DNA of 62,808 nucleotides, the filler included, from Sluysia triapertura (Eukaryota): assembly GCA_046118255.1 (NCBI GenBank). It is 5 parts of 5 records of this genome, joined end to end, with 100 filler letters (N's around TTAATTAATTAA, not from the genome) between each part and the next. Parts side by side here need not be neighbours in the genome. Positions count along the whole stretch, not along the records: positions 51,153 to 62,808 come from JBJNIA010182369.1; 4 more parts are not named here. One strand, 5' to 3'. Position 1 is the stretch's first letter, and the number at the start of each line of letters is the position of its first letter. Below the pieces are notes generated by a model. That model did not search any database. It was not told the DNA's origin and saw nothing but the letters and a program-made list of their open reading frames with translations. Shown piece after piece: positions 25,399-62,808 of this stretch. A program made the position numbers and the translations under genes.

Positions 25399-26530
25399 AT
25401 TTGACCTTTACTCCAACTACTAAAGACCTTGATTCCACCCACCAGTCAGATCGATGCATAATAACTCTGACTATAACCTTTCCAACGCCAATTCCAGAAA
25501 TTCCGTAAAATTGGAGGTCATTTTGTCGTCATTTTTCCCTACAATTAAGAAACCAGTGTTGTATATTCATGACTGATGCAGAAATAATATACCGCAACTT
25601 AATTTTTGTTTCCTGAAACATTCGACTTACCTGTCGTTGGTGTGGCTTCGAAAGAGAAACTGTTGTCCATGTATCATTCCGCATACCATCAATGGCCGTA
25701 CAGTAAGACATAATAAAAATGTTGAATGTTTACATAGTAAACTAAAATAAATGGGCTTCTCGGTCAACAACGACATCAAAATCCCTAGTTGGAGTATCTT
25801 CAAGCGCAAGGTACTAATTCTTCCCAACTCTTTTTCATAGACATCAAATCTCTTATTTATGAAAACTTTCTAGCGGCACGATCATTTAATATTACCAAGT
25901 ATTCTGATCTGAAGAAAAAACTCAAAGACCCAGAAAAAGTAGGTTCCGTAAAACTGATATTACTGGTTTGGCAAGCCACTGTATCAAACTATATCTAGAG
26001 GACCATTCCCTTTTGATTTTCTTTTTATGGTGAATAACATTATGCTTCTTTCTGTTCTTCCCTTTAATACATTAATAAAATCTTTTTAATTTTCCAATAC
26101 GACACTATAATTATTTTTTCCTTTTTTATGTATGTTTGTAAATCATCGAAGTTTTCTTTAATGTAATGAATTGTTAAATTATTCCAATATTTCTTTCCTT
26201 TTTTCTATGAATGCTTGTTTATCTTTTGTTAAATATAACTGTATACCTATAATAAAATGATACTTTGACGTTTTTTGCTCTGTGAATATATACCTATTTC
26301 TATGAATGTTTATATAACACATATATTTTTCATTTTCTGTATAATTTAAATATGTGTTGCGATTTTGTACTTAATAATAATAACAAATTAATATCGGTTA
26401 ATCTATTTAACAAAACTTCAATAATTAATCACTAAATTCAATGTAAAGCTAAATCCACTTCATATATACATATTCATCATTAACATTTATTCGTAATAAC
26501 ATTATAATATATTAAGATTTATTTTGTAAT

Positions 26531-28879: not shown

Positions 28880-29400
28880 TTAGAAAATGAGGATGAAATA
28901 TTAGTGAAATGGTTTGTTTGGGAATGAGAACCTTAAACATTTTCCATTAAAAAATTGAGTGTGAGGAATTGAAAATTAATTAAAAAGTAAAAACTAAAGT
29001 TAAATTCAATATTTTTAAGTATGTTAATAATAATAATAATATATCAATAATAATAATAATTGTTATTTTAATGTAAGAAATGATTCATGAAAAACTAGAT
29101 CGAGTAGAGTAGAAGAAAAAATGCGAGTTGATTCTTAATCGAATTATTTTGTTTTTCTTGACAGGTCGTACCATGTAAGTGTCATTGTCGTTTTAGTCGG
29201 TTTAATCTTTAAATGATGTTTTGATGATTTGTGTAAGAGTAATTCCTAATTGCGAATGCAGAAATGATTGGATGACAAAAAATGTGTAAATTAGAATACT
29301 TAGGCATTTTTAGACTTTATTTACCGTTGATCACAAACAAGAAGATCCATGCTATTTGTATCTTTTTATTTATATAATTTTGTTTATAATATTAATTTTA
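28880..29400 (-). repeat. internal fragment of the ~2-kb LTR-like family
   Basis: Similar to 44900-45370 (e.g. GTACCATGTAA, AAGAAGATCCATGC). Confidence 0.7.
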
Positions 29401-30637: not shown

Positions 30638-30797
30638 TGTTGGGGTAAAAGGCCTAAAAAGTGCCAAGTAGTATAATTGAATATATTGAAAATGAAAAAG
30701 TTAGACGGGGCTGATAGCTCAGTGGTAGAGTAGTCGGACTGCGCAGACGATGGTCCCGGGTTCGATCCCCGGTCAGTCCATTTTATGAAGTCTAACA
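30638..30797 (+). mobile_element. ~160-bp tRNA-cassette element, copy 2, TSD GATA
   Basis: GATA|TGTTGGGG...GTCTAACA|GATA. Confidence 0.9.
30708..30780 (+). tRNA. tRNA-Ala-derived pseudo-tRNA inside mobile element
   Basis: A box TAGCTCAGTGG, B box GGTTCGATCC, G3:U70, A73, TTTT terminator; anticodon arm disrupted. Confidence 0.7.
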
Positions 30798-32400
30798 GAT
30801 ATGAGGATTTTATAACTGTCGCATGTGAGGAACAATTTATAAAAATTACAAAAATTTATATTAACAAAATTTTAAATACCGAATCAATGAATATGATAAT
30901 ATATTATACAGTTTACAAAAAATTATACTAAAAGTAATAATTTTTGTTAAGTTATTTTATGAAGATATTTTTCTTCAACACATTAAACGGTTGAATGAAT
31001 AATAAAATAAAATGAATAATTTAAGTAGATTTTACAACTAATAAAATTAGTTACATTAACAGAAAATTGACTAACGTAATATTTCAAATATATCGATAAA
31101 TTCGTAGAATTTTGTGTTGAATATTTGATCGAGAAGAAATGAAATTGTTTATCAGGAGCCTTGTCCAAAATTAAACGTATATGTGTAACAATTAATTGCG
31201 AAGAAATGCAACTTTTTATCAAGAACTTGTCCAGACATATATGTATAGAATTAAATGTTTTTGTTGTGAAACCTATGTTCTTTTACATTCTTTTTGTGGC
31301 CTTAATTTATTAAAGCAAAATTATTTAGTCAATTTTTATTTATTTTATAAAAACATAAATTTATTATAAAATATAAAAATATAATTAATTAGTCACATAA
31401 ATATTATCCAAATAAATATTATATTATCCAAATACAAATAAATTAAGTTAATGTACTAATGCATAAAATTAACATATTATTGATTATAAAAACATCTATA
31501 CAAAATTATAAAAATATGTGTGCCGTACAAAACTATTGATTTTAAGCTGCTACACAAAATTAGTAATACAAAATTAGTGACATGACATTTTAATATAATT
31601 TTTCCAACTCACAATAGTTAGTATTAAAACAAAAATGAATTTTATCAATAAGCAGTATTATAACTCTTTTAATATTATTGCTTCAATTTCACAATAATTA
31701 GTATTAATATATTAAAAGCAGATTTTATATTTGTAATTAAATGTTACTAATAATTAGACAAAATTGTTAGTGTATTTTAAAACAAAATTTTATTTTAAAA
31801 TTTTCTTATAAGTCTATAAACTTATGTATTATTTAATTTTTTTAAACTTTATAACTTTAATTTGTACTGAACTAGTACAGTAGATATAAACATAATAATT
31901 TTATTAGTGATAATAATGATACTTTTAGTAATTTAATTTTATAAATTTTCTACAATAATATTAATATTAATAATAACAGTAATTAATACTTTTTAAGCAT
32001 AATAATAATATAATAGTATCAATACTAATACTAATAATAATATTAATATAATAATAATAAGAATAATAATAATAATAAAATAAGAAATGTTTTATTGAAT
32101 TTATCTTTTATATGTAAAAATTTCAATAATTAAACTAAACTAATTAAATATTACATAAAGATTTCCTTACATACATAAAGATTAAGTTACATAACAAATA
32201 TAGCAAAGAAATAACAATTTGTAGGAATCACGAGATTTAAGTACAAGTGAATTTACTTATTTAAAGATTGAAATTTTTAAATAATTCATATATTTCTACT
32301 AGGGCATTACTAGTGATTTTATGATGGTATTTTAAGTGCTTGTTTAAAATAATTAGATAAATATTTTAAGCTATATTTAAGTTCTTTAATGAAATTCTAC

Positions 32401-33893
32401 TGTTGCGTCTATAATATTTATTAAAACCAAAATATTAATTTAAATTACTATCAACTCAATCATTTAGTATTTACAGAATCAAGTACAATTTAACAATAAT
32501 ACAAATGAATTAAATAAAAATGACTAAATCTCAAAATTAACAGTAATTTTTTGACACGATAACATATTCCAAGAAACCAGAGGTGGCGCAATTAACATAA
32601 TAAAATTGGTCATTCATATTAACACTTAACAAATATAGTTTTTTTAAATAAATAGCAATTTTCATTAGTCAAATCACAATATATCATCCAATATAATAAA
32701 ATAAAAATTATAATTCACTAATTTTTCTATACTAAATAAAATTTATTAACTACAAACCGACTTTATTTGTCAATTAATCAAGAAACAAAATGTTTAGCAC
32801 AGCTGTAAATAATTAAAGAGGAATTTTGCCATAAAAAATAATTTATTTAAAATCAAAATAATAAAATAAAATAAATTCAGAGTTTTACCCAATACATGGA
32901 TCTTCACATCAGCAGCATTAAAGTCTTATTACTTGTTGTGTTGTTTTTAAAATTATTTGATGTTCCCTTTTATAATTTCCTGAATATTTTGATCAAACAT
33001 TCTCTCACAAAAATCATCACAACATTCTTTGATAATTACAATCCGACAATAATAATTTTGACAGTTACATGGTACAGATGCAGAATAGAAAAAACTGATT
33101 TATGATCATCTATTGTTTCCTTTTACTTTACTCGACCTATTTTTACTTAAATTACTTCTCACATTATAAATAACAATCACCAGTATTGTTAACATGCGTA
33201 AAAATAATGAAATTAATTTTAGTTTTTAGAATTTAATTGACTTTCTAATGGAAAATATTTAAGGTCCTCATTCTCAAATAAACGGCTTATCCACATTCAA
33301 TTCATTATCTTTTCATCATTAAAAATTCAACATTCCATAATTAAAAGTTTGACTTTCCTTAATAATAAGGCTTTCCTTTAACGTACTCCGCCATATCACA
33401 CCTTTATCGAAAGATCTCTTCAAAATAAATACACAGAGCATTCCGCATTTAAACATAATTCACAACTTTATCTTAATTAAGATCAATCTATATTTAATTA
33501 ATTAACTTATTTTTAGACAATCTTATTTTATGTTTAGAGGTTTTATTAAGATTTTGATATTATTTAGTACTTTATTAGGCATTCGGAAGGAACTAGATGC
33601 TTTCACCTTCATCACATTGATTCCTTTTTCTACTTCTTTTTGTTAATTACTGCCATAATATTAACAACAGTGATTTTATTTATCAAATATTTTAATGATC
33701 CCAACTACTTTTTAATGTTACTCAAGTCTTAAATGCTTAATGAGGTCTCAAAGATTCTTAAAAATTAATAAGATGATTAATACAAGTTAGAGGTTAACAT
33801 AAGTTCAAAGGTGTCCTAATGCCTTTAAAGTCTTTTCAGGTTCATCTCAAACTTTAAAGATGTTTTCGTAACTCCAAGGTATACTTAAGATAT
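32401..33893 (+). mobile_element. older relative of the ~2-kb LTR-like family, target of the 33894 insertion
   Basis: Begins TGTTGCGTCT; shares internal blocks (CATGGATCTTC, ACATGGTAC, TTTCACCTTCA, GAT(T)CCTTTTTCTACTTC); 3' end not resolved. Confidence 0.65.
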
Positions 33894-35635
33894 TGTTGCG
33901 TCTTTAAAATTACTGACTATTACGACTCAATATAAACTTGGTTAGCTTAGAGGAACCTTAATAATTTAAATAGTCAATATATCAAATATATTTTTGCAAT
34001 AATCTTCTCTTATAATATCAATAACTATTATTTCCAAATTTAAGTACTTGATAATCAAAATCAAAACTAAGTCAATAATGTACTATTAAACAAAAATTAG
34101 TAATACAGTTTATTATTACTAATTAGTAATACAATTTAGTGAAAATTTTCACTAAATGCTGAGAATCACTAAAATGACAAAAATGACAAAAATGACAATA
34201 ATGTTTATAATAAAATTAAAGACACTACAATCTAATTAAAACAAAACAACTAGTAGTGACGCAACAACCAAAAATATGGATATCCAGAAAGTTTAAAATA
34301 GTAATGATAATTAGAAATAATTTAAAAATAAATTGGGCAGAGTGTCTCCCTCTAAAATTATCTTTTATTTAGCTGAAAATCAAATATTTAATTCAACCTA
34401 TCAACCTACATTAAAAACAACTTAAATTAATTGAAAATAATATAATATTAAAAATATCCAAATTAAAATAAAATTAGTTATTTATATTATTTTAATGAAA
34501 TAATAAATAAACAAAAATTACAAAATTTACCCTATGCATGGATCATCTATCATCACTGTTGAAATCGTAGTTGTTGCATTATTGTATTATTATTGTTTTG
34601 TAAAAATTTTGAAATCTTTATTTTATACTCTCTCACCATCCGATCAATTCAAAATCTCACAACCAAACATTCTCTCACACAAATCATTCATACCTCTTTG
34701 AGAATCAGACCGACAATAACAATTTTGACAACTACATGGTACGGTCTATCAAACTTTATTTATTAAGTACAATACATAGAAATCTGATTTATTATCAACC
34801 ATCATTTCCTTTTACTCTACTCAATCTATTACTTCTCACATTAAAATAACAATCAGCAATATTATTAACATACATAAAAATAATGAATTTAATTTCACTT
34901 ACTATTATTTAATTAATGTTCTATTTTTCAAACCCAATTTTCTAATGAAAAATGTTTTAAGGTTTTTATTCTCAAACGAACAATTTTACAAACATTTCGA
35001 GTCCTTTATCATAGCAATAATCTCATCTAAGTATTAAAAATTTAAGATTTCATAATTAAAAATTAATTAAGATTTGACTTTGCTCAATATTAATTCTTTT
35101 CTTGCATGAACTCAGTCAAACCATACCTTAATCGAAAGGTCTTTTCAAAGCAAATACATACACAGTTTCAAATTTAAAATAGCATTCCGAATTCAAAAAC
35201 GTACTTTTTCTTAATTAAGTTAATTATGATTCTTAATTAATTAATCTATTTTTATACTTAACCTTATTTTATGTTTAAAGGGTTTATTGAGGTTCTAAAG
35301 TTTTTTTAGTAGTTTATAAGACATTCAGGAGGTTCTAGCTGATTCCTTTTCCTACTTCTTCATGTTAATTATTACTATACTAGATTTATTCTTAATACCA
35401 ATAACAATGATTTTATTTCTCAACAACTTCAATGATTTTAAACATTTTATAAGATTACTAAAGGAACTTAAATATTCATCGATGTTCCAAAATACTTAAA
35501 GGTTACTAAGGTCTTAAATGATCTAAAATTTCTAAAGTTCGGAGGTACCTTAATGCTTCTAAAAGTTTTTCAAGTCCATCTCAGGCTTCCATAAAATCTC
35601 AAACCCTTACATAGGTCTTTGGAACTCCAAGGTAT

Positions 35636-35796
35636 TGTTGGGGTAAAAAGGCCTAAAAGGTGCCAATTAGTATAATTGAATATATTAAAAATGAAATTGT
35701 TAGACGGGGCTGATAGCTCAGTGGTAGAGCAGTCGGACTGCGCAGACGATGGTCCCGGGTTCGATCCCCGGTCAGTCCATTTTACGAAGTCTAACA
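35636..35796 (+). mobile_element. ~160-bp tRNA-cassette element, copy 3, TSD GTAT
   Basis: GTAT|TGTTGGGG...GTCTAACA|GTAT; sister LTR copies (~25233, ~33878) show a single GTAT at the empty site. Confidence 0.92.
35707..35779 (+). tRNA. tRNA-Ala-derived pseudo-tRNA inside mobile element
   Basis: Intact acceptor, D and T arms; G3:U70; anticodon arm unpaired. Confidence 0.7.
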
Positions 35797-36879
35797 GTAT
35801 TCTTTAATTGTTAACATTATTATAGATGTTTTTATTTTAATGATTCAAATTTCTACAATGTTTATAATGTTCAATCCATCAATTTGTATCAGTTTTCTTT
35901 TCATTTTATAACTCCATAGGTTTCTCCCTCATTTCCTGACATATACTTGTGAATCCCAACAATATGCGTAAGAAAATAATTACTTTATTATTATGATGTT
36001 ATATCTTATACTGATGTCTGAATGATTAAATTTCACTTAGGAATTTAGGTTTGATTTTAACTTCCTGCCCTCTTATTATTGAGGTTTAATTATTGTTGAT
36101 TTTATAATATATTTAAACAGGATCCTAAAAATGATTTCACCACCACATTTAAACAGGTGTGAAAACAGTTTTACAAAGACGACTTATTTTTCGCATTTAA
36201 AACTATAATTTATTTTTTATATTGTAGATATCAGTAAAGGGGGTTTCAAAATGGTACCGGTATTTAAATCTGTTTAGGTAGTTTTGCGTTATGTAAAGAG
36301 AAGTGGTTTGGAAAATCGTTATTTATATTCAATAAGTATGTAATGACTAATATTGTGCTATTGTGTGAATTAATATTGATTTTTATGAACATTAATTGAT
36401 TTTTATAAACATACATTTATTAATGATATTATTAACAATTATGATTAACACATATACATTTGAATTAATATTGATTTTTATGAAAATACATATATTTATT
36501 AATATTGATTTTTCTTTATATCGAGTTAATTTGATTTGTATTATTTAATTTAATTTTTTGGAAATATTTTTGGAATTAATCAATTATTCTTAAGGTAATT
36601 ATTTCTTTTAAAATTAGTATTAAAATTTAAAATTAGCATTAAAATTTAAGATTATTATAAATTATTTTGTAAATTATTTTAAAATCTAAAATTATATATA
36701 TTTCTCAAATAAATATTAGTTTTGTTTTAGTCTGACCAATGTCAGACTACAATAAGTATAAATAAGCGAAATTTTAGTCACAACCTCCATAATTTTTTTG
36801 ACTCGAATAGAATTAGTAACCGAGCTCCTTTTCTTCGACGGAAAGTGTAATTAACACACTATTTAGAATATCATCTTTT

Positions 36880-37426: not shown

Positions 37427-37909
37427 GCTTTAAATTAATCTTTATTCTAACTTTCTCACAAGTATATGAACAAAGAACGTTGATATTAAATATATAAAAT
37501 AATGTTATGAATTAAAGTAAATTAAGTTTAAATTATAGAGTCAATTTATTGATCTAAAGATCTTTGAGAATTTTAATGATAAATTTAAGTTGAATGTTAT
37601 ATGTAGCGAAAATTTAAAATTATAAACAACTAACATTTAATTACAAATTATTATTTACGAAATCTTTCAGTTTATATAATAGTGATTTGTTTTATATCGA
37701 TTCAATTTCCCATAGCTGTGTGACTGAAGGTTGTTAGTATTTGATCGAACTAATGTTTTAAATCAATGAGATTGAAAATAATGTAAATAAAATAAAATAG
37801 TCCCTTGAATTAATATTGTTATTGTAAATGAGATTACGAGCTTATTTATATATTGTTGTCAAGTATTACTCCATTTTAATTGTGTTCTTTAATCTTTAAG
37901 TGAACGTAC

Positions 37910-38064
37910 TGTTAGAATTCATAAAATAGACTGACCGGGGATCGAACCCTGAACCTCTCGTTGCGATGTTTGATGCTCTATCCACTGAGCTATTGGCCCC
38001 TTCTAACGGATTTTAGATTATATTCAATTATATTAAATGGCATCTTAGGCCTGTACCCCCAACA
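37910..38064 (-). mobile_element. ~155-bp tRNA-cassette element, diverged copy 4, TSD GTAC
   Basis: GTAC|TGTTAGAA...CCCCAACA|GTAC. Confidence 0.88.
37927..37999 (-). tRNA. tRNA-Ala(CGC)-derived pseudo-tRNA, diverged
   Basis: A and B boxes retained, TCGCA in the loop region, acceptor stem degraded. Confidence 0.55.
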
Positions 38065-38691
38065 GTACCAGTAGTTTAAAGTTTTTTTGTATAAGATTCT
38101 ATTTCAAATGAAATCGTTTAACAATAAAATTTACTAATTATTCGACAAATTTAAGTGATTTCAAGTCTACACGTAACTTTATAATTTCAGCAAAAATAAA
38201 ATTATTTGAGAACTTAGAATTGGATCAACAAACTACCTCACTATTTTTATTTTTCTGCCAGTAGTAACTCATTACAATTCATTCACTTATGATATGTAAT
38301 GCTTAAAAATCTTTTGTTCTCTTAAATATTAATTACAAACTTTCTTTTAAAAAACTAGTAATTCTGCCTCATGTGCAGGTAGAAAATACACAAATTAAAG
38401 TATCTATTTTAAAACTTTAATCGAAAAATATATTGTTTTTGAATAATCTATTGTTTTACAATATTACAATTCTTGCTTATTAATAAGATTGTGGAGAAAA
38501 ATTCCTCAATTTGACAGACTATCAGTAATAAACTTATAACCCATAGAAAAATTAAATTACCATTTTAATTAAGAATCTTAATTCATGTGGTATTACTTAT
38601 GTCAATAGAATAATTATTTTTTCAGGTTTAAAGATCAATGTAACGACAAAAAATAGAACGTTAGTAGTATAAACAAAAGTAAATATGTATT

Positions 38692-44084: not shown

Positions 44085-46060
44085 TGTTGGGATTGCCCAA
44101 CTGTGGATCTGGAGACGAATGAAAACATATAAATGAAGGAAAAATGGATATACATTGATGAATTGAACATGATAAACATTGTTGGAATACGAATCGTGAA
44201 AGTGAAAACGTCATAATAGTGTTAAGAGTTTCAAAGACCTATATGGAAGGTTGTAAATGACTTGGAAAACCTTTGAAGGTATTAGAATACCTTTGATCTT
44301 GCGGACATTGAGATAATCTCAGACTTCATTAACCTTTAAGCATTTTTGAAACTTGATATGTATCTAAGATCTTCGAGTGATATTACATAATGTATAAAAT
44401 CTTTATAATATTTGAGAAATAAAATCATGGTTTAAAATAATAAAGATGGGTTTAATATAGTAATAATTAGCATGAACAAAAAAAGGAAACAGAGAGGTGA
44501 AGGTGAAAACATCCGGAGCCTCCTAAATGCCTTATTAACTACTAAATAACTTTAGAACCTTAATAAAACCTATAAACATAGAATAAGATTAAGTCTAAAA
44601 ATAGATTAATTAATTAAAATCTTAATTAACTTAATTAAGAAAAAATACGTTTTCGTGAATATCTTTTGAATGTGGAATGCTTTGTTGAATTTGAAACTGT
44701 GTATGTATTTGTTTTGAAAAGACATCTCGATGAAGATATGGTTTGACCAATTTCATGAAAGGAAAGCCTGAATATTGAGCAAGGTCAAATTTTAATTAAT
44801 TTTTAATTATGGAATGTCAAATTTTTTATACTTAGAGTAATACAAATGTAATGAATAAAATATGAAATGATTTCTATTACGAGGAGAATCTATAAGTGAG
44901 TTTGAAATGTTTGTAGAATGGTTCGTTTGAGAACAAGAAGCTTAAAATATTATTCATTAGAAAATTGGGTGTGAAAAATTAATCAAATCCTAAAAAGTGA
45001 AATTAAATACATTTTTTTATGTACGTTAACAATATTGTTGATTGTTATTTTAATGTGAGAAGTAATTTAAGTAAAAATAGATTGAGTAAAGTAAAAAAGA
45101 AATGATGACTGATAATAAATCAGAAATCTATTTTTTGTACTTAATGAAGTTTGACAGACCGTACCATGTAATTGTCGAAGATGTTATTGTCGGTTTGATT
45201 CTCAAAGAGGTTTGGATGATTTGTGTGAGATAGTGCTTGATTGTGACACTGGGAATTGACTGGATGATGAGAGAGTATAAAATAAAAATTTCTAAATTTT
45301 TACAACACAATTACACAATCACAGGACACAAGAAGATTTGCAGAATTAAGAAGATCCATGCTCTTGGTAAGGATGTTTTATTATTTTACTATTTTATTCT
45401 AATTTATTATCGATGTAATATTGTTATAATATTCCGATTATTATTATCAATATTATTTCATCTGTTTTTAAGGGAATTTCAAATCATTTGGTGAGAGACT
45501 CCTTTTGCAATTTATTTTTTTGGGATTTTACAATTAGTTTTGTGAGAGACACCCTACACATTTTACTTTTCAAATATCTTTTTTTATTTATTACTATTAA
45601 ATTTTAGGAAGAATCTCGGACCAAATTTTTGTTATAATATTTAATTATAATTATGTTTGGTTAGATGTCTGGAAAATTTTGGGCAGTATCAATATTCTTT
45701 ACTTTCTAGATATTGATATTTTTAATGTCTGTTGGGTCACTCCTGGTTTCTTTAGTTATATTGTAGTGTCCTTAATATTATTATTAATCTAGACTTTTTA
45801 ACCAGTTTGAATATTGTTTAGTGGAGATTTATAATAATAATGAATAATATTTTGCTTTTTGTTTAATAGTAAATTATTGTGTTATTTTGATTTGATTTCA
45901 AAGAGTTTAATTTTTGGAATGAATAATTACTGATATTAAATAAGAGAATTTTTGAAAATTTAGATTTGATCTAGTGAATACTTAAATAATTGAGATCCTA
46001 TTTAAGCTAATTAAGTTGATATTTATTTTAAATAATTTAATAATTTTCAAAGACGCAACA
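44085..46060 (-). mobile_element. ~2-kb solo-LTR-like element, TSD ATTC
   Basis: ATTC|TGTTGGGATT...GACGCAACA|ATTC; reverse-complement homolog of 33894-35961. Confidence 0.9.
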
Positions 46061-49000
46061 ATTCTACTACTTTGTTATATAAATTTTTTATTCAATTTTA
46101 TTCAGACAAAGTTCGAAATGGAGTTCAGAATACTTGTATTAATCTTATCTATTCATTTAACATTTCTATTTTGTATCTACTCAATAACTGTTCATAAGCA
46201 AAGACTAAGTCAGCATATTCAGACTAACAATCTTTGTATGTCAGACTGTTTTCAGAAAGAAGAAAGGTCAAAGAAGTTCAATATCTTAGAATCTCGAGAT
46301 GTAATGTTGTCCGATTTTTTCTCAGGTAGGGACAAAATTATTCAAGCCACTGAACTATTACCACCTTTGAAAGATTGTTATACATGCAATGTTTATCTTA
46401 TATGCCGTCAAATATCATATGGTGTTGATGCAGTTTCTTGAAAAACCAAATCAAAATCAAATCTCCGAATAAAGCACCTTATCATAAACCAATTGATGTT
46501 ATAGATGGAAGTGAAGAAGATGATAAACTAGATAGTGCTCAATATAAAAAAACATTAGATAGCGTCTGTATTACGAAGGGATTATATGCAAGATCATGCA
46601 GCTTTTACCGTCAATATTACAATAAAGAATGAAGTATATAGCGATGGAAATAAAGTTTGGATATCCGAATAAGATATGAATTATATCAAGAACTTGATAA
46701 AACAAACAACTAATAATGTTAATGACTTAAGTACTGACAATGTTGTGATGAAATATGTATTATCCAATAGAGAGCGCAAATTTGATTTAAAGAATCCCAA
46801 TAGGGTAATTGATGCAGTCGCTAGACCAAACAAATCGAAAATATTGAAATATGAAAATAAAACCCGTAAAAATGTTACAATTATTGATGATGAATACAAT
46901 TTAATAATATTTTATTTTGTTAAATAGGAAAATAATACTTAACGTTTTACAATTTTTGCATTACAAATTTAGTTTAACCAAATCTAGTTTTATATTTGTG
47001 TACATATCGATTTGAATTTTTATTTAAAAGTTTTAATAAAATTAATAAATTTCTAAAATACTAAATTATATAATTTAGAAAAATATATATACGCTACTAA
47101 AATTAGTAGCTTACCACAGACTACAATCATTTATTTTCGATTTTAACTAAAATATTTGTATTTGTTTATATATTTTAATTGTCATTGCAACTGATAACTT
47201 TGGAAATTAGTTATTCAGTCATTACTTTTGATTAATGTTAGTAAATTTATTCATTGTTTTATACAAAGTCAATAAATTAATGAGAACATTTAAGTCATAC
47301 ATCTTTAGATCCTGCTCAAATAAAGTTCATAATTGAAACTCTTACGAAATCCAATAATGGTAATTATATTGATGATAACTGTAAAATCACTTTCAACGTT
47401 GGAAAAAAACACCATAAAATATTAGTTCATCATATAAAACTGATCATTCCTATTATGTTTATGTCTATAGATCCAATGAAGTTCAGTACATTAGTGATAA
47501 ATTTAGTTGTAACTACGGAGATTAATAGCACGAATCAATTCGAGAGATTCCCCTTTTCCTACTATCTACACAGTCGATGTATGGGTTAATGGATATCAAC
47601 ACTCATTTATTTAGTGACAGTTTAAGTTCGAGTTCTCTATTGGAATTCATCATTTGCAATAAATGTATTCAATGTTCATTTGATAATCGACGTGTATCGA
47701 TATGCGGACAACCTTGTGCGTTATCAATCAATATCACGCACGAATCACGACATAAAATATTAATTCGGTTCACTTTTCTAACTGCCTTAGTACTATTTCT
47801 TTTTACAGATATTTCTTTTAAGACTTTTAAAGTTTTTTTGATACTCGTCGTTTATAGTTTACAATAAAATATCTCTTCGTGTTTATTTTGATCATTCCAA
47901 TTTTTTAATTTATGTTCAATTTAATGTTAATTTTGTTTAATCTTGAAAATTTTATTAAACATAATTTTCAGATTTTTCATTTGATACTTCATTTCAATAA
48001 ACTTCTTCAAATTGTATCCATATTAAAACTCTTTAATATATGCTTACCATGCCTCGCTATAACAGCGGACGTAATTATAACATATATTAGCAATTTAGCT
48101 ATTGACAGCGGTCTTTATTTTACTTCAGAAAAACTCGTTGCACCACTTTAAGTTGACACTTTAATTTCATAAGTCAAATATCGTACGAAACTCACAACTT
48201 ATATATAAAAAGAAAGAATAATTATATTTGAGAAAAATCACCATGATAATGATGAAAAATATAAATCGACATTTTTTTGTTTGACATTACTGATTAATTT
48301 GTGTAAATTTTGATTTTATTTTTTAGTACCTATTTATTTCATTTTTTATGACAAAGTTAGTATTTTGTTAAAATAAAAAATTCCTTGGAAATGTACTGAA
48401 CTTATAAATTAAAAACAAAAAAAATAATCAAAAATAATTCGTTTGGGAATGCGCTAATGATGCTAATTTGGATATTAATTTTAGAGCATAATATTCAATT
48501 TATTTTAATCTTCATGGTATAATTATATTAAAAAATGGAAGTTGTATGGATGTGTTTAGTTTAGTCGAAAAACCAAATTATAATATGCATAAAACTTCTT
48601 GTTATGAAAATATTCGTAAATGTAATTATGGTTAGATGTATAATTTTGATATTTCATATCATTTTAATAAAACCAAAATATTTTTAAATGGTATTCAATG
48701 AATTTTGTGTAATACAATATACATAGAAGTAGAAATCATTAATTTTGCTGAAACTGTTTATAATAATTCAAAATTTGCAGTATATAGTATAAATTTCAAT
48801 TCAATTATAGAAGTAGTAAAATATTAGATGTCAATAATTAAAAGTAAATAAAACATTAATATACTAAAATATTTGGTTGAAAATATCTAGAAGAATTAGC
48901 TAATCATAATATTTATATAACCTATGGATTGCGAAATTGTACGAAAAATGTTATAACTATTTTGTATACAAATTTGAATGAAATTTCTCATTATTAGTTT

Positions 49001-51152: not shown

Positions 51153-52900
51153 AGATCTAGAAACTGTGACCGAAGAGAATAGACGTCTTAAAACAATAGT
51201 TAAAGAATTATTAATCAAACTTAAACGACAGAAAATTAATAATGAAGCAAATCGTGAAGAAACCGATGAAGGAATGTTAGGTAATTTATTATTCACAAAG
51301 GATGTTGGTAGACACACTAAAGAAAATGTTGTTTTTGATAGTAATGCTAGTAATAAAGAATATATAAAAGATACTAAAAAGGACATTAGCAAATTTCAGG
51401 AAATAAAAACTGAATTAAGAATGATCAGTAATAAAAATAAAGAAGATGGAAATCAGAACCTGTATTAACTGAAAAATGTGATATTAAGTTACAGAAAAGA
51501 TTAATAAATACATTGTGCCTTGGTGACATAGTAAATAAGCAACACCCTTCTTTTGAAAAAGAAATAATATAAGAAAAGTCTACAAAATGTGGTAGAAGTT
51601 GTTTTGTGAAAAATAGTATTTCATTATTAAAATATATTTTACCATTAATAACTATTTTAATAGTTCTTGGAGAAAATCACCAAAAATTTAGACTTAGAGA
51701 TGCTCATAGTAAAGTTTGTTCAACTTCAACAATAGTCATATTTATGCTTTCTTATTTATTCGAATTTACAACTTCGAACTCTTTTTTTGCGAAACCTACA
51801 ATAATAAATTAACAAATTTCACTTGGGACAATGAGAAGTACAACTGCATGTGGTCCTGAAAACAGGTCGACTATAGTGGATCTTAACAAAAATCCACACA
51901 TTGAAACAAATACAATTAAAAGACGGCCTGGTCGCCCAAGAAAAAAATGAAGAAAATGATATGCATCTATTTATCTTGCATATTGAGCACAAACTATTTG
52001 TCGAGAAATACTTCACCTAAAATAATTTTGATATCTACCCAGAAAGACATTTACTCTAAAATATTAATAGATAAAATTAAGTTATTTTCTGTTCAAATAA
52101 AATGTTGTATAATGGATTAATGTGAAATTGAAATACGGGCAAGTAAACAAGATTTCTACTGGTTTACATCTTGCATTGATCTTGCTGAATATCAATTAAT
52201 TAGTGTAACAATAACTATAGAACTGGAATATGATTCCCAAAGTGACTCAAAGACTATTTTGATGCGGTATTATAAAATAAAGACTAAACCGTTTACTTTT
52301 CAACAATCATTAACACATGATAGCAAGACTGAATCCCAACAATCGTTGACATCAATTGAATATCTACCGTTATCTGGGAAATATTGTGCGTATCCATAAT
52401 CCATTATGTGGTAATACATTAATAATCGCATATGAATTGCCTGTTGGGTTACGTTATGGAATAATATTACCTGATGATTCTATTCGCTTGTATCGTATAC
52501 CAAATAATAAACTCGTGTTTATTAAATTTTGGATATTAAGAAAACCAGAAATACATGATTCAAAAGGATTTTGGCCAATTGTAGATAAGTACCAAAATGA
52601 TTTCGATACGAAATCAGAGAAAATGATTAGAATTAATAACAATTTTACGAATGTACCTTATGATAGGAACAGAAATATAGGTTCGAATACTACCAGCATA
52701 AGTATGAATATCAGTAAGGAGAATAACGAATGTTCAATTATAAAAGAATCCAACAACAACTTCTTCATAACTTTAAATTATATTTTAATAATAATTTCCT
52801 TACTAACATTAATAATTAATTTTATTATTTATTTATTAGGCACAGAGGCCACTTTCTCATATAAGTTGTAATATATTGCATTGATGACCACATGTAATGG
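51153..52900 (+). mobile_element. heavily deleted, divergent relative of the Gypsy family (copy C)
   Basis: IVDLNKNPHIETNTIKRRPGRPRKNEEND at ~51865 matches the AT-hook ORF of copies A/B; ORF 52356 ends ISMN...NFFI+TM like ORF 57667. Confidence 0.65.
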
Positions 52901-55734
52901 TCATTCATCTTGGGTCATGTGTGATATTAAAATCATAAAAAATTAATTTTAATTTTGTAAAGATAGTAAGGATCATGCATATGACTATTTGTAATGGTTT
53001 ACCATTCATTTCGAGTCATACGCAAACTAAAATATCACTTAACTTTTATTTAGGATTAGGATTTTTTAATTTTTTATATTTTTAATTTACAATAGTACTC
53101 ATTTTATAACCGTATTTCAAAAACGGTGTTCCTTAAATCTTTTTATCTTTTCTCTATGAAATTTTACCTGGATTTTGCGACCGGAATAAAATCGGCGACT
53201 TTATGTTAATTAATGAATGAAATCAAGTAAGAAATAAAAATATATTAGTTATACAATTATACAAAATGATTTTATATAGGAGATAATAAAGGTTATATAA
53301 TAAATGTATAAATAATTTAATAAAGATTATAAATATAATCTTTTATTAATTAATTACCTCCCTCTTAAAAAGTGGGTTGTTAAAAAATTTTACAATCTAT
53401 TAAAATTGAGGAAAACTTATGAAAAACAAACTAACGGTTACAACAAATGGATTATAGATAAAATTTCCAAAAAATTAAATATCGTCCAAAATTCGAATGA
53501 ACTTCAAATAAAAGTTCAAATTAATCGCCGAAGAAAATTGATAAAATTTCAGAAGTTCCTTGAAGATCGTGGTACAAAATCTTTTGATTATTATGTTGTG
53601 TGTTTTTTGTTAAATGTTATGTGCCTTTTATAGTAAATGAGTGATAACTTTGACTGATATTTATTTGAAGAGTTAATTTGTTTTAAAGAATTTAAGAAAT
53701 TAAAAATATAACGATTTTAAATAAATAATAATAATAACAAGAATACCAACAAACTATTAAAATTAAAATCAATAATTTTATTTTAAACTATTAGAATTAC
53801 AATAAAAATTTTATTTTTAGATTTTACAATCAATTTTTAGATTCTACTTAGTAAAAATCAATAATTTATATTTACAGACCTATTTTAGATTAAATAGGTA
53901 AACTATTATAAATTTTAGTTAGATTCTATATTTACACCTATACATAAACTATTTTTAGATTATAAATATAAACTTTAGATATTGACATAACTTTCCCTTA
54001 CGGAAAAATTAGTCTCTAATTTTAAAATAGTGTGGTATTATTATTATTAGTCAAATTCAGAATCACTGTCTAATAAAGTGATCACCGGAATATCATCACC
54101 ACATCCAAAAAATTCGTTTTCAGTTAAATTTTTACCCAGAACACCATATTCATCATTGTCACTGTTATCACTATCGTCTAGATCGACTGGCGAATCCAGT
54201 TTTCTTTTCTTGATAACTGTATCTGACGCCGGATGTTTCGATGTTACCATTTCTGTTTTTGCCGGTTCTCGGTCTTCTGTTATCTTTTCATCTTGTAATT
54301 GTGGATCTTCCTTATAAAATTTCTTGTTATTTAAATTTTTTGATGTTACTTTTATGACTTTTGTGAGGAGGTGTAAAAGGAATAGGCCTATCAAAGTATG
54401 GAAGTTTTGTGCAGATTATGGCTTTGTTAGAAGATGTAGATGGAATGAGAGAAAGATGTGAAGGAGAAAAGGGTGAATGAGAAGAAAAAGAAGGCAAAAT
54501 TGGAATAGAAGTAATTTTTGAATTGTCGATCTATGGCAGAAAGAATCTGTTCTTATTTTGTATCAAGTCAAATAATGATATTAAATCCTTAGCGTGCTCT
54601 AAACATGAAACACGCGGTGGGAAGAGATTTAACAATTTCAAAACCTTCCGCGCCCTTAAGATTGGATTAAATGACTTGTGCGAAACTAAATTTGTACATG
54701 TGAGATTAATGATTCCCCTTAATCAGCCGTATTGAATTTTAAATGTATTAATAATTATGTCGGGGAAGAATGCGACTAATATTTTATCGTATTGTGATGT
54801 AAGCCAATGTTGGCGGATGTCAGCTGTCTTTCGCATTGATAAGGTTGTCTTCCCTTAACCAAAGTTCTGCCGCTAGAAAGTTCCTAATTCTTATACGTGG
54901 TCTTAGTAATTCATCCGAATGGAAAAGTTTGTGATATTGTATTAAACAAACTCTTATTGGCTGGTAATTTTCCTTAAAATCTAGTGCCAACTGTACTGTT
55001 ACGAAGACAAGTTTATTTTTGTCTAACATGGATATATGTGGGGTATGAGTAAATGTTATTCTTTCTTCTCACTTATAAAGATTATCTTTGTCCTCGGCGT
55101 ATAATAAAGGGTGTTTAGTCATATCTAGAGGTTTATCAATGTTCAAAAAGAAAACAGCGAAGGTGGTAGACAGTTCTTCCGCTTCAATGTATACTTTGAA
55201 ATTTGATGTCAGATTTGTTATCACTAAGGAAGAATAGCCTTGTATTCGTGAATGTAGAGGGACTTTGTTCACGAATAATGATATTTTGAGGGAACCCCTA
55301 GCTGCGGCAATAAGCACCTACTGTCATCTTTAAGGTATCCCTGCAAGGTATTTATAATTAAAGGAGATTGTATTTATTGTATATGAAATAAATGTGTGAT
55401 AAAATTTTGGTCCAATTCATTCTTTAAAATGTTTGTTGTTAGGTTTGATTTTAAAAATACATAAGGGGTATCATATTTGCCACAAAAGCTATCTATTCCA
55501 TTGTAAAAAGAGGGAATATTGTTTGTGATGTATGCATGTGGAAGAGTGGTTGGAGATATCTGAATGAAAGAACATGTTTTGTAAAAAAGTAAATACAAAG
55601 TTAGATATTTTAATCGTTAGTTTGTTTAGTTTGTTATTAATATTACATTTATTTGATTATTAATTAACCTATAAATTTTAGGAATCATAAAAAGAAAATA
55701 AATAAAAATGAAAATAAAATATTAAGTACGTTTC

Positions 55735-56193
55735 TTTTTGAAGAACGGATTATTTTTAATTCTTAAATTGCTTTTATATGATCCCATCTTTTTATAGAAT
55801 CATCTCAATTGTCTCCTGCGACGGTTGTGTTTTTGTGAACGTGTCAGTCCAGGAGGAAAATTTGGTTTAAGTATACTTATTTCCTGTTTATTGTTAAATT
55901 GCTTATAATAGGTGGGTTGAATAATTTCTATATCTTCTATTTGAATATTTTCTGTATTACTATTTAGTGAAATATCTTAAAGTGCATATGAATGGCGGAA
56001 TTTTACCTTACGAAATACCTGTATTTCCTTTACTATTGTTCTACATAATGAACAATTCAAATACTTAGTTAAAGTAAAATGAAAAAGATTTATGATGCAT
56101 TTAAAATGGAATTTACGCATGCATGGAAATGTTTTTACATAATGTTTTTTTATGAATTGACTTTTGACAAATTGAACATTTGATGCAATACAT
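55735..56193 (-). pseudogene. RING-H2-type zinc finger ORF
   Basis: CSICQKSIHKK/HYVKTFPCMRKFHFKCIINLFHFTLTKYLNCSLCR across a 1-nt frameshift in an A7 run. Confidence 0.75.
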
Positions 56194-56459
56194 TATCTAA
56201 AATATGAATGAAAAATTAAAAAATAAAAATATACTTAGTAAATAAAATTTATTATTATATTAAATAATAAATTATTATTATATTAATTAAATAAAGTTTA
56301 TGTTCCTATTTAATGTACAAAGCTAAGTAAAACTGCGAAAAGACCATTAATAATTTTAAGTTAGGTGACCGGTCAGACAGAAGGTAACCGTCAATATCGA
56401 TCACTCGTAACTTATTCATTTTTTATTCATTTCTATACTTTGATTGAACAAGTTAATCT

Positions 56460-58400
56460 ACGCGTGTTAATTACATAAATTTTTATGATTTCTGTCGTAA
56501 GAGTGACTGCAAGTAACGCAAAAAGTATGAATGTTATAAGACATAAATATATGTTGATTTTATTTGAATTGGCTTGTCGCTATTGCTGATTATTTTTTAT
56601 TTATTGATTTTACCATTTCATACTTATTATACTTATTTAATGTCTTCAGTAGTTTCATTAATGATTGGTACTACTAAATTAAATTGTCGTCCAGGCCAAA
56701 TGCGGTTCATTCTAAATGTTTCATTAATGAAAAATATCAATATGTATATAAATGGGAATGTCAATTTTGCTTGGTAATCTATTCTAATTGTTAACTTAGC
56801 TGGTATTAACTCTAAAGAGGCTTTATTGGTACGATAATTTATGGCAATTGAATTATTTAATAACGTGTTGGTCATTTTAACTGAGTTATTTCTGTCAATT
56901 ATTGCTGTAAAGGAGCAATTCAACCATTGTCTACTAAAATAGTCAAAAAATAAATATGGTTTGGTTTTAATCCAATGATACTGTGTATATATTAATCTAT
57001 TTATTAGCGCTATTGTTATCTTAACTTTATATAATTGAGATTCGAATAATTCTTCACAATTTATGATCCACTTTTTGATTGTTTTATAAGGAATTGTAGT
57101 ACATTGATCTTGTAGACAGCATCATATAGATAAGTGAATTAATTTTCCATTTATATTTTTAACAATAGCTATAATTTCATCGGTCTTAACTTGAATAGAT
57201 AATTGCATATCATTATGAAACATTTTCTTATTTAATTTATTTGTTATAATCTTAGTCGAATAAACGGTGGTTATACACGTCAAACAAATACATAGTAAAA
57301 CTGATGACATTTGAATTCCATTGTAATGTGTCTGAAATCTTAAATCATATTCATATAATGGAGATGGCATTATTGGTGGTAATGGTGGTCCTTGAGGGGC
57401 ATAAAATCGATTGATTATTGGTACTGAATAATGATTATCCTCGTCGTTATTAGATGAAAAATTTGAATATCTGCACTTATTCATTATAAAAAACATGATC
57501 ATTAAGAATGTTATAATTAAAGCAATAATAAATAAGGTTGCTGCTATTATTAGAATTACCAATGATGGATCCTTTCTTAATGAGTCGATAATTGTTAATT
57601 CTTTTCTGTTACCTTGTATAGCATAATGTAGTTGTTTAATTATTTTGGTTTGCTTTATAAATATTACTATGTGTCTATCTTCCGAAAGCAAAAAATCCTT
57701 ACAAATTGTAACGGGATATTGCGTATTTTAGGTATTACATGTTGATGGGTTTTCCATATACTAAAATTGAATCTTGAGGGATTAATACATATATATTGTG
57801 CTTTTATATTCGTACTGGTCATTTTAATTTGTACTTCAGTATCATAGTTGTAAAAATCGAAATATTGTGATCTATATACCTTTTGTGATCCATTTACTAT
57901 TGATACCAATGATAATATAGTGAGTAACATTATGTCTCGACGAATATTATTAGTTCTTAAAATTCTGTTACAAATAATAATATAAATACTAAATAGCAAG
58001 TATATTATGGTAAAAATTAGAAGTGCCAATATAAAGAAATTCTTTGTACTATCTTTTTTCTTTTCCCTTATTGTATTTGTACTTACTTCTTTATCATTCA
58101 TACTTATTTCTTTATTTGTTGATCTTTCCAGATTTCTTGTTATTGGTGTTAATGCTATTGAAGTTTCCTTGTATTATTGTTCATTAAGTATGTCCGTAAA
58201 ATTTATTGTTACCAATTTACTGTCATAAAATGAAAATCCGATTAATGTAGTAAAATAAATTGAATGTTCACATTGATAGATATCATATATTAACAAAGGT
58301 TTCTTTATTACTAATGGTTTCAAATAGATACAATAAATTTCTAAATTATAATTGGGTATTGGGTTTCTATCGTCTACCTCAACTGTCCAAAATCGATTTA
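56460..58400 (-). pseudogene. tandem type-I membrane glycoprotein polyprotein
   Basis: TM, internal signal MLLTILSLVSIVNG, TM with Tyr/Pro tail, internal signal MSSVLLCICLTCITTVYS, N-glycosylation sequons (NCS, NNS, NET), terminal TM. Confidence 0.55.
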
Positions 58401-58537
58401 AAATATTTTAAGAAAGATTGCTTGTTTAGTATTAGTATAACTTGTTAAGTTTGCTGGATAATTAGGTACCATGGTTGTGTATTGCCGTCATCGTTATCTG
58501 TTCCTTTACCCGATGTTGAAGAGACTGTGGTATCCAA

Positions 58538-59160
58538 CTAATCAAGATTTTCCCAATTTGGAGTTGGCGATGGTGTTATGATTGGATTTAATGCAGTAAT
58601 TTGATAATTTTGTGGTAAAGGTTGTAGTGCTCTTGGCATTGGAGGTAAAACTAATTGTGGTAATACTTCATGTGTTCCTAAAGGTATTTTAAGTAATCCT
58701 AATCTTCCACGAATTACTATGTTTTCTAGTTTATTTATTACATCCATTCCTAATATAATATCATATGGGCATCTTTCCCAAGCTAATATTTTTACAAACA
58801 GGTCTACATCTAAGATTGTTAATTGACATTGTAATATTCCATTAAATAAAATATTTGAACCATCCACTTCAAATAATCGTTTTCCGGCTTGTTGTAACAT
58901 AGTAATTTCTAAAGCAGTTAGTATATTGTAATTGATAATAGTGTTATTTGAACCCGTATTTATAACTGCTCGTATCCATCGTTGATTGAATTTAATACTT
59001 TGAAACAGGTGATTTTGTATATTAAAAGAGGTTATCATATTTATTGCACTTATTGGTTTATTGATCATTAAATCCGTACTTGTTGGTTTAGACGGTGTAC
59101 TTAATAATTTAGATGGTTTATTTCTATCTTTAATCCTTGACTTTACTGTTAATATACTTT
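58538..59160 (-). CDS. retropepsin-like aspartic protease located 3' of integrase (catalytic D to N)
   Basis: IRAVINTGSNNTII...YDIILGMDVI match the A-L-I-DTGS and DIILGMD retropepsin motifs. Confidence 0.85.
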
Positions 59161-59670
59161 TCGTACTTTCCTATTTCTTAAGTTATTTTCGTCATTAGGT
59201 GCTAATTTACATCGATTTACGTGTATGACGAAAGTCTCTGCATTCATATCATTAGGTTTCTTTATATATATAAATTAGTAGAAGTTGTTTTCATTATTTC
59301 ATATGGTCCCTTAAACGGTTTATGCAATTTCGGAGAATATCCTGGTTTTGATATTGGGTAATCTACTAGTACTTTATCTCCTACTTTAAAATTATGATCA
59401 TTTGTTTTTTTATCATAGTTATCTTTATAAGTTTCCTGTGTATAACGTATCTGTAACCCAGCGCGTTTCCACGCATCTTGTAAATTTTCTCTCATAATAG
59501 TTACATATTCAGGAGTTTCTAGATATTGAGATGACGGTGGAATCCAGTCTAAATCTACTGGCATATTTGAGTGTCTACCGTACATTAGATAAAATGGTGT
59601 AAAATTAGTAGCAGGATGTACTGAACTTCTGTAAGCAAATAAACATGGAGCGATATAAAGATCCCAATAC
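59160..59670 (-). pseudogene. pol: Gypsy integrase C-terminal part with GPY/F module
   Basis: WDLYIAPCLFAYRSSVHPATNFTPFYLMYGR...FKVGDKVLV...FKGPYEI...VIHVNRCK. Confidence 0.92.
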
Positions 59671-60465
59671 AAATGGCATCTTTTCACATTCATATAATTC
59701 ATTTCCACATGAAAAAGCTGTCTTATGCTTGTCCTTTTCTGCAATTTCTATTTGCCAATAGCCGCTTTGAAGATTTAAAGTCGGAAAATATTTTGCTTTT
59801 CCTAATTTATCTAACATTTCATTGATTCTTGGTAACGGAAATACATCTTTTCTTGTTATCTTATTTAGTTCTCTAAAATCAATACAAAATCTCATAGTTC
59901 CATCTTTTTTCTTGACTAATAATACTGGTGATGAGAGTGGAGAAAAGCTTGGTCTAATTACTCCAGCCTTTTTCATTGTGTCTATTTGATCTTTCATTTC
60001 TTGTTGATTGCATAATGGAATTCTATAAGGTTTCTTTCTTATTACTTTATCTTCTATTAATGGGATTTCGTGTTTTATTATAACGGAATCTCCAATATCA
60101 TATTTATTTCTTGCTATTGCCCAAAGATATCTGTAGATGACTTTGTATAACGTTTCTTTTTGTTGTTTAGTTAAATTCTTATTTTTTATTTGTATTTCTT
60201 CATAATCTTCTTCATCTTCAATATCTCTTTGAAGTTTTATATTCTTATCCTTTGGTTTATCATTTGATACCATATTTATTTGTGTTTGTAATTTATAATT
60301 AACTATTTCTCCCAACTTTGTTCCTGCGTATAATCATTTATTTTCATCAGTATAATTTATTATTCTTGTACATTTCCATCTTGAATTCTGCAAATTGAGT
60401 CAGCAATACCTATGTTTAATTTTTTGATTATTTTTTGAAGCGATAAACATTATTGGACCATTTCT
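59671..60465 (-). pseudogene. pol: Gypsy pre-RT linker and RT N-terminus
   Basis: KKPYRIP...GVIRPSFSPLSSPVLLVKKKDGTMRFCIDFRELN...FPLPRI...SGYWQI...KTAF...MPF. Confidence 0.95.
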
Positions 60466-60489
60466 CAGTTTGTCTCCTTTATTTAGGCT

Positions 60490-60826
60490 TTTGTATCCAA
60501 TTTCGAAAGCATTTCTACAATTATTTGGTAATATTTTAAATGGTTTCTGTACGTATGAAATATCAATAATTGAAGAATACCATATAACCACTGACCTTTT
60601 AACCAAACATTCCCTGACCAAAGTTGTGACCAAATTCCCGTCTTGGTATACATTGAATACTTTCATATCTTTTATTTTGACTCTATTTGGTCTTGATTCC
60701 AGACAATCTTCAGTGTCTAATAGAGAAAATTTTCTTCCAATTTGAGGTTGGCTACAATAAAAAAGCCTTAATAGCATTAGTCTTATGAATTCCAAATAAT
60801 GCCAATAAAACAATTATAAATAACAT
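60490..60826 (-). pseudogene. chuvirus-type glycoprotein N-terminal fragment, copy B
   Basis: CSQPQIGRKFSLLDTEDC...VYQ...VRECLVKRSVVIWY-SSII...ILPNNCRNAFEIG. Confidence 0.65.
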
Positions 60827-62808
60827 TATTTATTGAAGTTCCAAATTGTGAGAATGATCCATTTGAATTTTCTTTATTATTAATTAGTCTAGATATCATA
60901 TTAAGTGGTTCATTTAAAGTATTCTTTTCTTCTTTTTCTTTGTCTTTGATAATATTTTTCCATCCTCCTAGTTTATTTATCAGAGTACTTAATTTCTTAT
61001 CAACAAAGTTTATGATTTTATCTATCTTTTCTTTAGTTAAAAGTGTAGCTTTATTACATTGAAATATTACATAAGCCATTATTATTTTAAGTCTTTCCTT
61101 ACTTATTCCTGCGTTAATCTGTTTATTTATTATAGTTTTATACTGCCCATTATCTATATAATCGCTTATATCTGTATTTTTATACTTTTCCATTATTTTG
61201 ATTATCTTATTTAATGAACTCTTGTATTCTTTTAATTCTGGTAACAAAGTTAGAAAACTTATTTGACAATAATGTATAAATTATAGTTTTAGTACTTAAA
61301 GTCTCATCAATATTTTTATAAGCAATTTTTGTTAAATCAATGGGTCTTCTATGTATTGGGTTTGAAATTATTGTTTCATCATCGTTATCTTTAACTTTTT
61401 TAGGTCTACCTGGCCTTCTTTTGAAAGTATTTGTTTTTTAATCTTCCGTTTCTATATGCGAGTTTTTATTTAAATCGATTATTTAATCAGGTTTTTCTTC
61501 AATGTCATCTTCATTATCATTAGTAATATCTATTATTTTACTATCGTTATAATTATCTTTATTTTCTTTATAATTATCATCCATTAATTCTCTTAGTAAT
61601 GAACGTGGGGTTCTGTCTAAATCAACATTATTATCATCATTTATTAATTCATCTAATTTTCTTAAATCATCGCAAGGTTTAGTGTATGCCATTATAACTG
61701 CGGAAGTCATTGATGCTTCCTTACGGTTTCCATTCATTGATGGATAACCGTAATCATTTATATAATCATTAGGTAATAATTTTCTATCATAAAATATAAA
61801 TCAACATCAGTAATATCAGAGTCATTTGATTTAAGTAATTCTATAATATCTTTTGCAATTGAAGTAACTGGGAGTTCCATAGTAATATTCAAAACATTAT
61901 TAATAATTATACCTATTTTCATTAATTCTTTGTGGTTATCTTTTTTTCATTTTTGCCCTATTTTTCTTAGTAATTTTCTTGCTTTAGTCTTATATGAACT
62001 ATCTTCTTTACTTAAAATAGCTAATACTAATTTAATCTCATGTCCATTTTGTAAGCTCAATTCTGAATTCAATAAGTCATTCAAATTTTCATTTAAATCC
62101 TTACCATGAGTCATATTGGATAAAAATTCTTCGATTTTTTGATCAATTCCTGGGGTATCTATTTTATCATTTGTAGCTGTTATTATTGATTCCATTTCTT
62201 CTGTTTCCATCTTTTCTGTGACACTGTTATAAGTATCTTCTTCCTCTATGTCAATTTTTTCTGCTTGTATTTCTTCATCATCAGTTTCTTTATTATTAAT
62301 AATATTTTCTGTCTGTTTCGACTTCTTTGTCATCACTAAATTCATTATTTGATTGTTTTTCTTCTTGATTTAATTCTTCTTCAGTTGAACTCGATTCTAT
62401 ATTCGATTCTTCATCTGTTGGAATTGATTCTATATTAGATTCCTCTTCTGTTTCATCATTACTTTCTTTTGATTCAAAATCTGCTAACTTGTTTGATTCT
62501 GTTTTCTTTGTCTTTCCTTCCCATTTGTCAATTAATTCTTGAATTATTTTTCTTTTAACTTCATTTGATATCACTTCCTTTATATCCTTTATTTGTTCGA
62601 TGCTTTCTCCTAAAGGTTGATCTAATAATTCCCGAATTCTCACCTGGATTGGTTGAATTGTTCATCTGTTTTCTTCTTTTTCTCGTTGTTCCTTTCTCTG
62701 TTTGTCTTTCTGAAATTCCAAATATCTGTCGTGCATATAACTCATAAAGATTTCTTCTTCTTGTTTATTCTTAAATCTATTTTTATCGCAGTCCAGTCCA
62801 GTGATATA

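Follow-up and report, generated by a model that had tools for sequence, protein, structure and literature searches.

Burro and GYPSM1 are giant planarian Ty3/gypsy elements in which env is situated between gag and pol, and the extra open reading frames (ORFs) of Burro are tied to ubiquitination and cell death (PMC6431247). The same source lists a "RING Zn-finger" motif, AIR1, for Burro. Burro1 encodes B-IAP, which combines a BIR with a RING (Lee et al. 2026, as cited in PMC13465017), and this protein is reported to protect stem cells from apoptosis. Few retrotransposons are known with proteins that act on the host ubiquitin system, and the IAP of Burro1 is the tested case as cited in PMC13465017. 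GAG-ENV-POL errantiviruses with an env of the gB type occur in Nematoda, Bryozoa and Platyhelminthes (PMC13524379), and the nematode NERVs are attributed there to Sacco et al. 2022. In the main text of that survey, of which 3' accessory ORFs are not the subject, RING or ubiquitin has 0 occurrences.

The locus discussed here is located in the last contig (51153-62808) of a window of 62,808 nucleotides from Sluysia triapertura, the term window denoting the whole stretch of DNA that was analysed. The minus strand of this contig holds a decayed RING-H2 gene (Table 1). The explanation that we favour, with moderate confidence, is that it served as an accessory gene, since pseudogenised, in a Gag-Env-Pol Ty3/gypsy element resembling Burro.

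Table 1. Features of the RING-H2 locus and the neighbouring element, in order along the window.
Feature	Position	Strand	Evidence or remark
T-tract, purine tract and TG: candidate polypurine tract (PPT) and 3' LTR start	53987..54008	-	pattern match
Decayed ORF (about 430 codons) following the RING	54330..55616	-	GC3 higher than in the element
58-codon tail in the RING frame, behind the stop, ending with basic HNRRRRQ	55803..55976	-	no Pfam match
In-frame stop TAA after codon 71	55977..55979	-	missing from the initial annotation
Start codon and RING-H2 core of the decayed RING gene	56043..56193	-	7 of 8 ligand positions typical; motif, Pfam and PDB match
AT-rich spacer, longest non-coding gap (443 nt) in the minus-strand tiling	56194..56632	-	tiling
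Putative acceptor-like TTTTAG after a T-rich tract	56197..56202	-	ends 3 nt before the ATG
Decayed accessory ORF block with hydrophobic signal/transmembrane-like stretches	56633..58173	-	ORF scan
Aspartic-protease-like ORF after integrase	58538..59170	-	gag-asp_proteas E 5.3e-5; proteases of relatives E 5e-12
N-terminal part of reverse transcriptase (RT) joined at ~59666 to C-terminal part of integrase (IN)	59150..60333	-	internal deletion
Start of env before pol, remainder deleted	60457..60830	-	E 2e-13 to P0124 env
Decayed pre-env part of the polyprotein with acidic stretch	60830..62808	-	helical region homologous to P0124

The window, with a GC content of 25%, is made up of five contigs with N-spacers between them. 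Host exons in it match Smg8_Smg9 (E 1.5e-28) and STT3 in Pfam, and they are open. These matches indicate a eukaryotic source, in all likelihood an invertebrate; of 3,382 candidates for the SMG8-like piece, one protein matched, at 39%. Another host gene, presumably PDZ-protein-like and devoid of a Pfam match, contains a 41-nt GT-AG intron-like stretch at 10358-10398 on the plus strand, which suggests a host with very short introns. Two repeat families are also present. A 160-nt repeat at 5121-5283, 30638-30800, 35631-35799 and 37907-38069 contains a tRNA-like part, Arg-GCG in two copies and Ser-CGA in one, and is probably a tRNA-derived SINE. A family of 2-2.5 kb has at least five decayed copies, including those at 23495-25403, 28885-29275, 32992-35966 and 44131-46062; one copy abuts the gag of a second element copy, apparently truncating it.

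The ATG at 56193 opens M-Y-C-I-K-C-S-I-C, in which the C-x2-C pair comprises codons 6-9. Following a +1 frameshift at an A-run near 56150, the next frame reads C-M-R-K-F-H-F-K-C and then C-S-L-C-R. The initial annotation had recognised a RING-H2 ligase in this arrangement and proposed a Pfam search on the corrected frame; the protein read across the frameshift, with X at the break, scores 28.6 bits against zf-RING_2 (cut-off 27.3, E 1.7e-6), which upholds the call. The natural piece downstream of the break alone reaches 21.3 bits (E 3.3e-4), below the cut-off. Among the sequences listed in the PDB search, 22 of 24 are RING-domain entries, E3 ligases such as Arkadia, RNF165, RNF38 and RLIM, and the top match among them, Arkadia (E 0.008), aligns without a gap across the frameshift. 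Chance controls were run with 19,703 random anchors: 281 of them are preceded, at the distance typical of a RING, by a C-x2-C in a different frame, and 35 when an in-frame ATG is demanded as well. Across all six frames the window contains a single occurrence of the motif's 3' half, and no second RING copy was found there. The RING-H2 domain is real.

With respect to the C3-H2-C3 pattern, seven of the eight zinc ligands are present and the fourth position is occupied by Arg. The Ile after the first Cys and the Arg after the last Cys are retained, and the Trp that usually follows the sixth ligand is Leu in the Arkadia alignment. These Ile, Arg and Trp positions have roles in E2 binding or ubiquitin transfer; domains of the RING-H2 class engage an E2 and attach ubiquitin to a partner.

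The reading of the region as a single ORF with one frameshift is only partly sustained. The C-x2-C, the frameshift and the shifted second half are all as described, while the TAA (55979-55977) and a further TGA at 55802-55800 interrupt the frame before the end that had been given to it at 55735. Likewise, the nuclear-localisation-like HNRRRRQ is present, and it is not continuous with the RING since the TAA comes between them. The tail is nevertheless probably part of the original RING gene, judging from its sequence, because it stays open for 58 codons, as do 744 of 19,646 random frames, and because runs of four basic residues are uncommon (31 in 125,612 codons). With a frameshift inside the RING and a stop after codon 71 the frame is broken, and the density of such breaks, about one per 70-140 codons by our own count, is similar to that of the polyprotein. 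To judge by the frameshift, the Arg at a zinc-ligand position and the stop before the basic tail, this copy is dead and would give no working ligase. Splicing offers no escape: several GT-AG pairs would allow the TAA to be bypassed, at the level of chance in AT-rich DNA, and such a splice is unsupported because the best-looking donor is kept in 0 of 10 covering contigs. Neither can an intron explain the frameshift, because the sole GT-AG pair starting there would delete most of the domain.

The break falls in an A-run, and a short protein consisting of a RING only is conceivable, so the frameshift could be a homopolymer assembly error in an otherwise intact 71-codon minimal RING protein. We regard this as very improbable: the surrounding element has many stops, frameshifts and two large deletions while host exons are open, and the fourth ligand is Arg regardless. 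No indel at the A-run appears among the 12 of 137 indels listed.

The RING stretch was found in two public runs, X1 and X2, whose contigs were matched to the window at 80% likeness. At 56011-56012, eight X1 and two X2 contigs overlap, and all of them have the same two other letters. The rows listed comprise 40 of 1,817 substitutions, 12 of 137 indels and 16 of 19,605 pieces. The summed X1 depth at this site is 551, against 14-27 for single long contigs, where depth is not equal to copy number and X1 may be the source of the window itself. The RING stretch is multi-copy in X1 and is also present in a second organism; the initial annotation would have been overturned by a single-copy host gene, and the distinct versions in these ten contigs therefore speak against one.

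Upstream of the RING gene, RT (RVT_1, E 1.8e-10) and IN of the Ty3/gypsy type were found, and the deletion at ~59666 removes the end of RT, RNase H and the start of IN. Relatives were examined among the best 120 of 2,330 RT matches; among these and their cluster mates the closest are the ENA proteins P0012, P0016, P0017, P0024 and P0124, the last being a cluster mate of the four closest RT relatives. P0124 is an intact polyprotein of 3,735 aa that contains capsid, zinc knuckles, env, protease, RT, RNase H and integrase in this order, and its env is a Monjiviricetes fusion glycoprotein (PF24664, 1.2e-91). The element of the window is collinear with P0124 from gag to IN, with 52% identity to it in RT and 56% in IN. 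Across the P0124 group the values are 48-54% for RT and 51-56% for IN, and the next-best IN among 69 IN matches has 38.5%. An RT tree was built from 46 rows, of which one is the window and the others are the 45 best full-length matches among 121; in it the element is sister to the P0124 group with 91/81, a support that is not strong.

The position of env before pol is borne out by matches of 60771-60457 (E 2e-13) and, in a second decayed copy, of 18312-17977 (E 7e-15) to the env of P0124; in the window, only the start of env survives. A helical region at 61133-60945 is homologous to the pre-env region of P0124 (E 8e-6). Putative BCL2-like and ubiquitin-like domains before env were labelled by eye, and no Pfam match was found in that region; its helical part gives a model of pLDDT 52 without a clear fold match, and BCL2 members are absent from the matches listed, which does not count against the label. 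No dUTPase likeness of the pre-RT region was seen in comparison with P0065. On sequence grounds, the element is a decayed Gag-Env-Pol Ty3/gypsy element with the same layout as Burro, a likeness judged from the published description of Burro.

Other features of the element and its relatives are of interest in their own right. The protease-like ORF is in an unusual place, and its catalytic D-T-G reads N-T-G; P0024 and P0124 have two protease-like domains before RT. P0124 carries a signal-peptide/transmembrane tail fused after integrase, and its four relatives have such tails too. The second copy, at 17079-23453, adds gag and the same start of env. Both copies lose RT homology at nearly the same residue (59666 and 17079), and both are devoid of most of env and of the pre-RT proteases, though they are only ~77% alike; this may reflect the spread of a non-autonomous subfamily that carried the deletions. 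A plus-strand fragment of a related element at 51153-52900, inverted and tail to tail with the studied element, ends in an ORF of 173 codons that has a hydrophobic stretch at its C-terminal end.

The initial annotation placed the RING gene in the 3' region of the retroelement. This placement is likely correct, and the RING probably lies inside the element because a tiling of open pieces on the minus strand begins at pol, takes in the RING and reaches the PPT-like site near 54000, on the same strand and with a matching composition; no bridging piece is among those listed. Open pieces of at least 55 codons cover 85% of the minus strand and 42% of the plus strand at about 53900-62808. With both strands of the window counted, the PPT-like pattern has 2 occurrences; it was picked after the site had been seen. 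No significant match in Pfam or the Atlas was found for the accessory block, and Atlas searches with two ORFs other than the RING returned nothing usable. At +52121-52300 there is a homologue of the part of the block at 56633-57121 (40% over 47 aa, E 9e-7). This homologue is directly preceded by a fragment from the same family of elements, so that the accessory block accompanies the family up to a point no more than 440 nt from the RING. The GC3 of the RING is 0.20, close to the 0.196 of the element ORFs (p 0.90), whereas the downstream ORF, with 0.35, differs both from the element (p 5e-7) and from the RING (p 0.004); host genes have a GC3 of 0.13-0.20, so that element and host cannot be told apart by this measure.

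X1 depth at variable sites of the element is 1,684 at 59140, 1,422 at 58086 and 1,569 at 56800 (range 1,400-2,500), within about threefold of that at the RING site, and 838 at 54599. Over pol it amounts to 60,000-400,000, in the bin of the RING it has fallen to 1,567, and its lowest values (443-1,469) are over 54272-55827. No record that bridges the RING and pol is among the 16 of 19,605 pieces listed, all of them under 1 kb. Neither an LTR pair nor a terminal repeat was found in the contig, and the 5' end of the element is beyond the window. No RING stands beside the second copy in the window, which ends in RT and therefore gives no linkage information. Joints near the RING were disregarded, as their sides are shorter than 30 letters in AT-rich DNA.

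Some of these observations could also be read as the mark of a different repeat, derived from a transposon or a virus, that contributed the RING and the downstream ORF and abuts the gypsy element or is nested in it. The whole contig is repeat-derived and contains the inverted related fragment, the longest gap of the tiling immediately precedes the RING, the depth has its minimum over 54272-55827, and the foreign GC3 of the downstream ORF could mark another insertion. We consider such an origin unlikely, although to be taken seriously: the strand is the same throughout, no boundary or terminal repeat is visible, and the GC3 of the RING fits the gypsy ORFs and not its downstream neighbour. The latter has no family match and, specifically, no match to a transposase, helicase or polymerase, and its model (pLDDT 40) is uninformative. 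It is multi-copy, with 18 X1 contigs at 54599, and is possibly a recently captured gene.

An acceptor-like TTTTAG before the RING, which the initial annotation had reported, was found where expected. TTTYAG lies equally near to 26 of the 2,163 ATGs of the window, a background of 1.2%, and the ORF downstream of the RING also begins at an acceptor-like site. As sequence motifs, these sites fit cis- or trans-splicing. The site before the RING could also be a cis- or trans-splice site of the host, and the RING may be a member, or a retrocopy, of an expanded host RING-H2 family that decayed beside the element and was never part of it. The nearest solved relatives are cellular RING-H2 ligases, host introns appear short, to judge by the one 41-nt GT-AG stretch, and the GC3 of the RING is host-like too. 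A conserved host E3 would be expected to have orthologues, however, whereas 0 of 3 candidate homologues passed and a search of 1.84 billion proteins returned one unrelated RING-repeat protein (E 1.9e-4); moreover, both flanks are multi-copy and decayed. A host origin is thus improbable in our view.

Further searches for the RING gave no close relatives. None of 359 metagenome and 29 viral matches to the motif pattern was upheld, and RT-based locus searches yielded context from 0 of 584 and 0 of 87. The motif is absent from pol-type proteins (0 of 120, the best of 2,330 RT relatives) and, by Pfam, from P0124; a separate 3' ORF would escape such a scan of pol polyproteins. The AIR1 motif of Burro we take to be most likely the knuckles of Gag.

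Returning to an accessory gene of the element as the preferred reading, the active ancestor would have encoded, 3' of pol, a short protein whose N-terminal part was a RING-H2 and whose tail was probably basic. Its gene would have been one in a series of additional ORFs located past integrase and before the element's 3' end. Because several stops and the 443-nt spacer separate the RING from pol, the protein would have been made from its own or a subgenomic transcript, for which the acceptor before the ATG is a candidate junction. With an E2 of the host recruited by its RING-H2, the protein would ubiquitinate a target in the nucleus, from which the element would benefit; the basic tail would be suggestive of a nuclear location. 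The likeliest class of targets, by analogy both with RING ligases of viruses and with the IAP of Burro1, would be host silencing, cell-death, innate or defence factors; the anti-defence role proposed in the initial annotation is likewise an analogy. What is observed in this scheme is the domain with its breaks, its presence in several copies and the layout of the element, whereas linkage to the element in other copies, splicing, activity as a ligase, the nuclear location and the target are inferred.

A broader proposal, which we put forward tentatively and hold to be doubtful, is that this env-bearing lineage of invertebrate endogenous retroviruses carries a 3' accessory cassette like that of a complex virus, and that its own E3, in place of a hijacked ligase of the host, destroys a host silencing or defence factor. 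Such a cassette would consist of a second protease, several small membrane or secreted proteins, a stand-alone nuclear RING-H2 made from a subgenomic RNA after splicing, and a gene of foreign composition. If true, a second, independent RING type in a related lineage would mean repeated capture of E3 ligases and would point to the host factor that is removed. As the present copy is dead, its value is that of a pointer to intact members of the family.

Comparison with cellular RING-H2 ligases reveals the same order of ligands, the same spacing of the first two loops and the Arg after the last Cys as in Arkadia/RNF111, RNF165, RNF38 and RNF126, the similarity to Arkadia being weak (E 0.008). In contrast to these ligases, the domain is N-terminal rather than C-terminal, the third loop is longer, and Arg and Leu are present in place of His and Trp. 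The P0124 group is the closest in RT and IN, and P0124 is collinear from gag to IN; unlike in the window, the sequences after IN are tails fused to the polyprotein, and the group has no significant match to the accessory ORFs of the window. Gene order and env class are shared with the gB-type errantiviruses and NERVs, as far as these are described in the main text of PMC13524379. No stand-alone RING-H2 gene 3' of pol was found for Gag-Env-Pol elements in the literature covered, and Grohme 2018, Lee 2026 and Sacco 2022 may describe one.

The likeness to Burro extends to Gag, a long acidic or coiled region, and an env of mononegavirus type before pol, and also to an extra ORF tied to ubiquitination (PMC6431247). 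Unlike in Burro, neither BIR, MATH nor ankyrin was seen in the element of the window, a protease-like ORF follows integrase, and the RING-H2 stands alone. As with B-IAP of Burro1 (PMC13465017), a RING domain is probably the cargo of a giant gypsy element. The RING of the window differs from that of B-IAP in beginning at codon 6, behind an upstream in-frame stop, in being of the H2 type, and in the lack of a BIR; no BIR-like motif was found in the six frames of the window, nor a BIR by Pfam in the neighbouring ORFs. The RING of IAPs is C-terminal and of the C3HC4 type. A RING in a giant gypsy element is known from the BIR and RING protein of Burro1, and the RING presented here, probably cargo as well, is of a different type, a stand-alone RING-H2.
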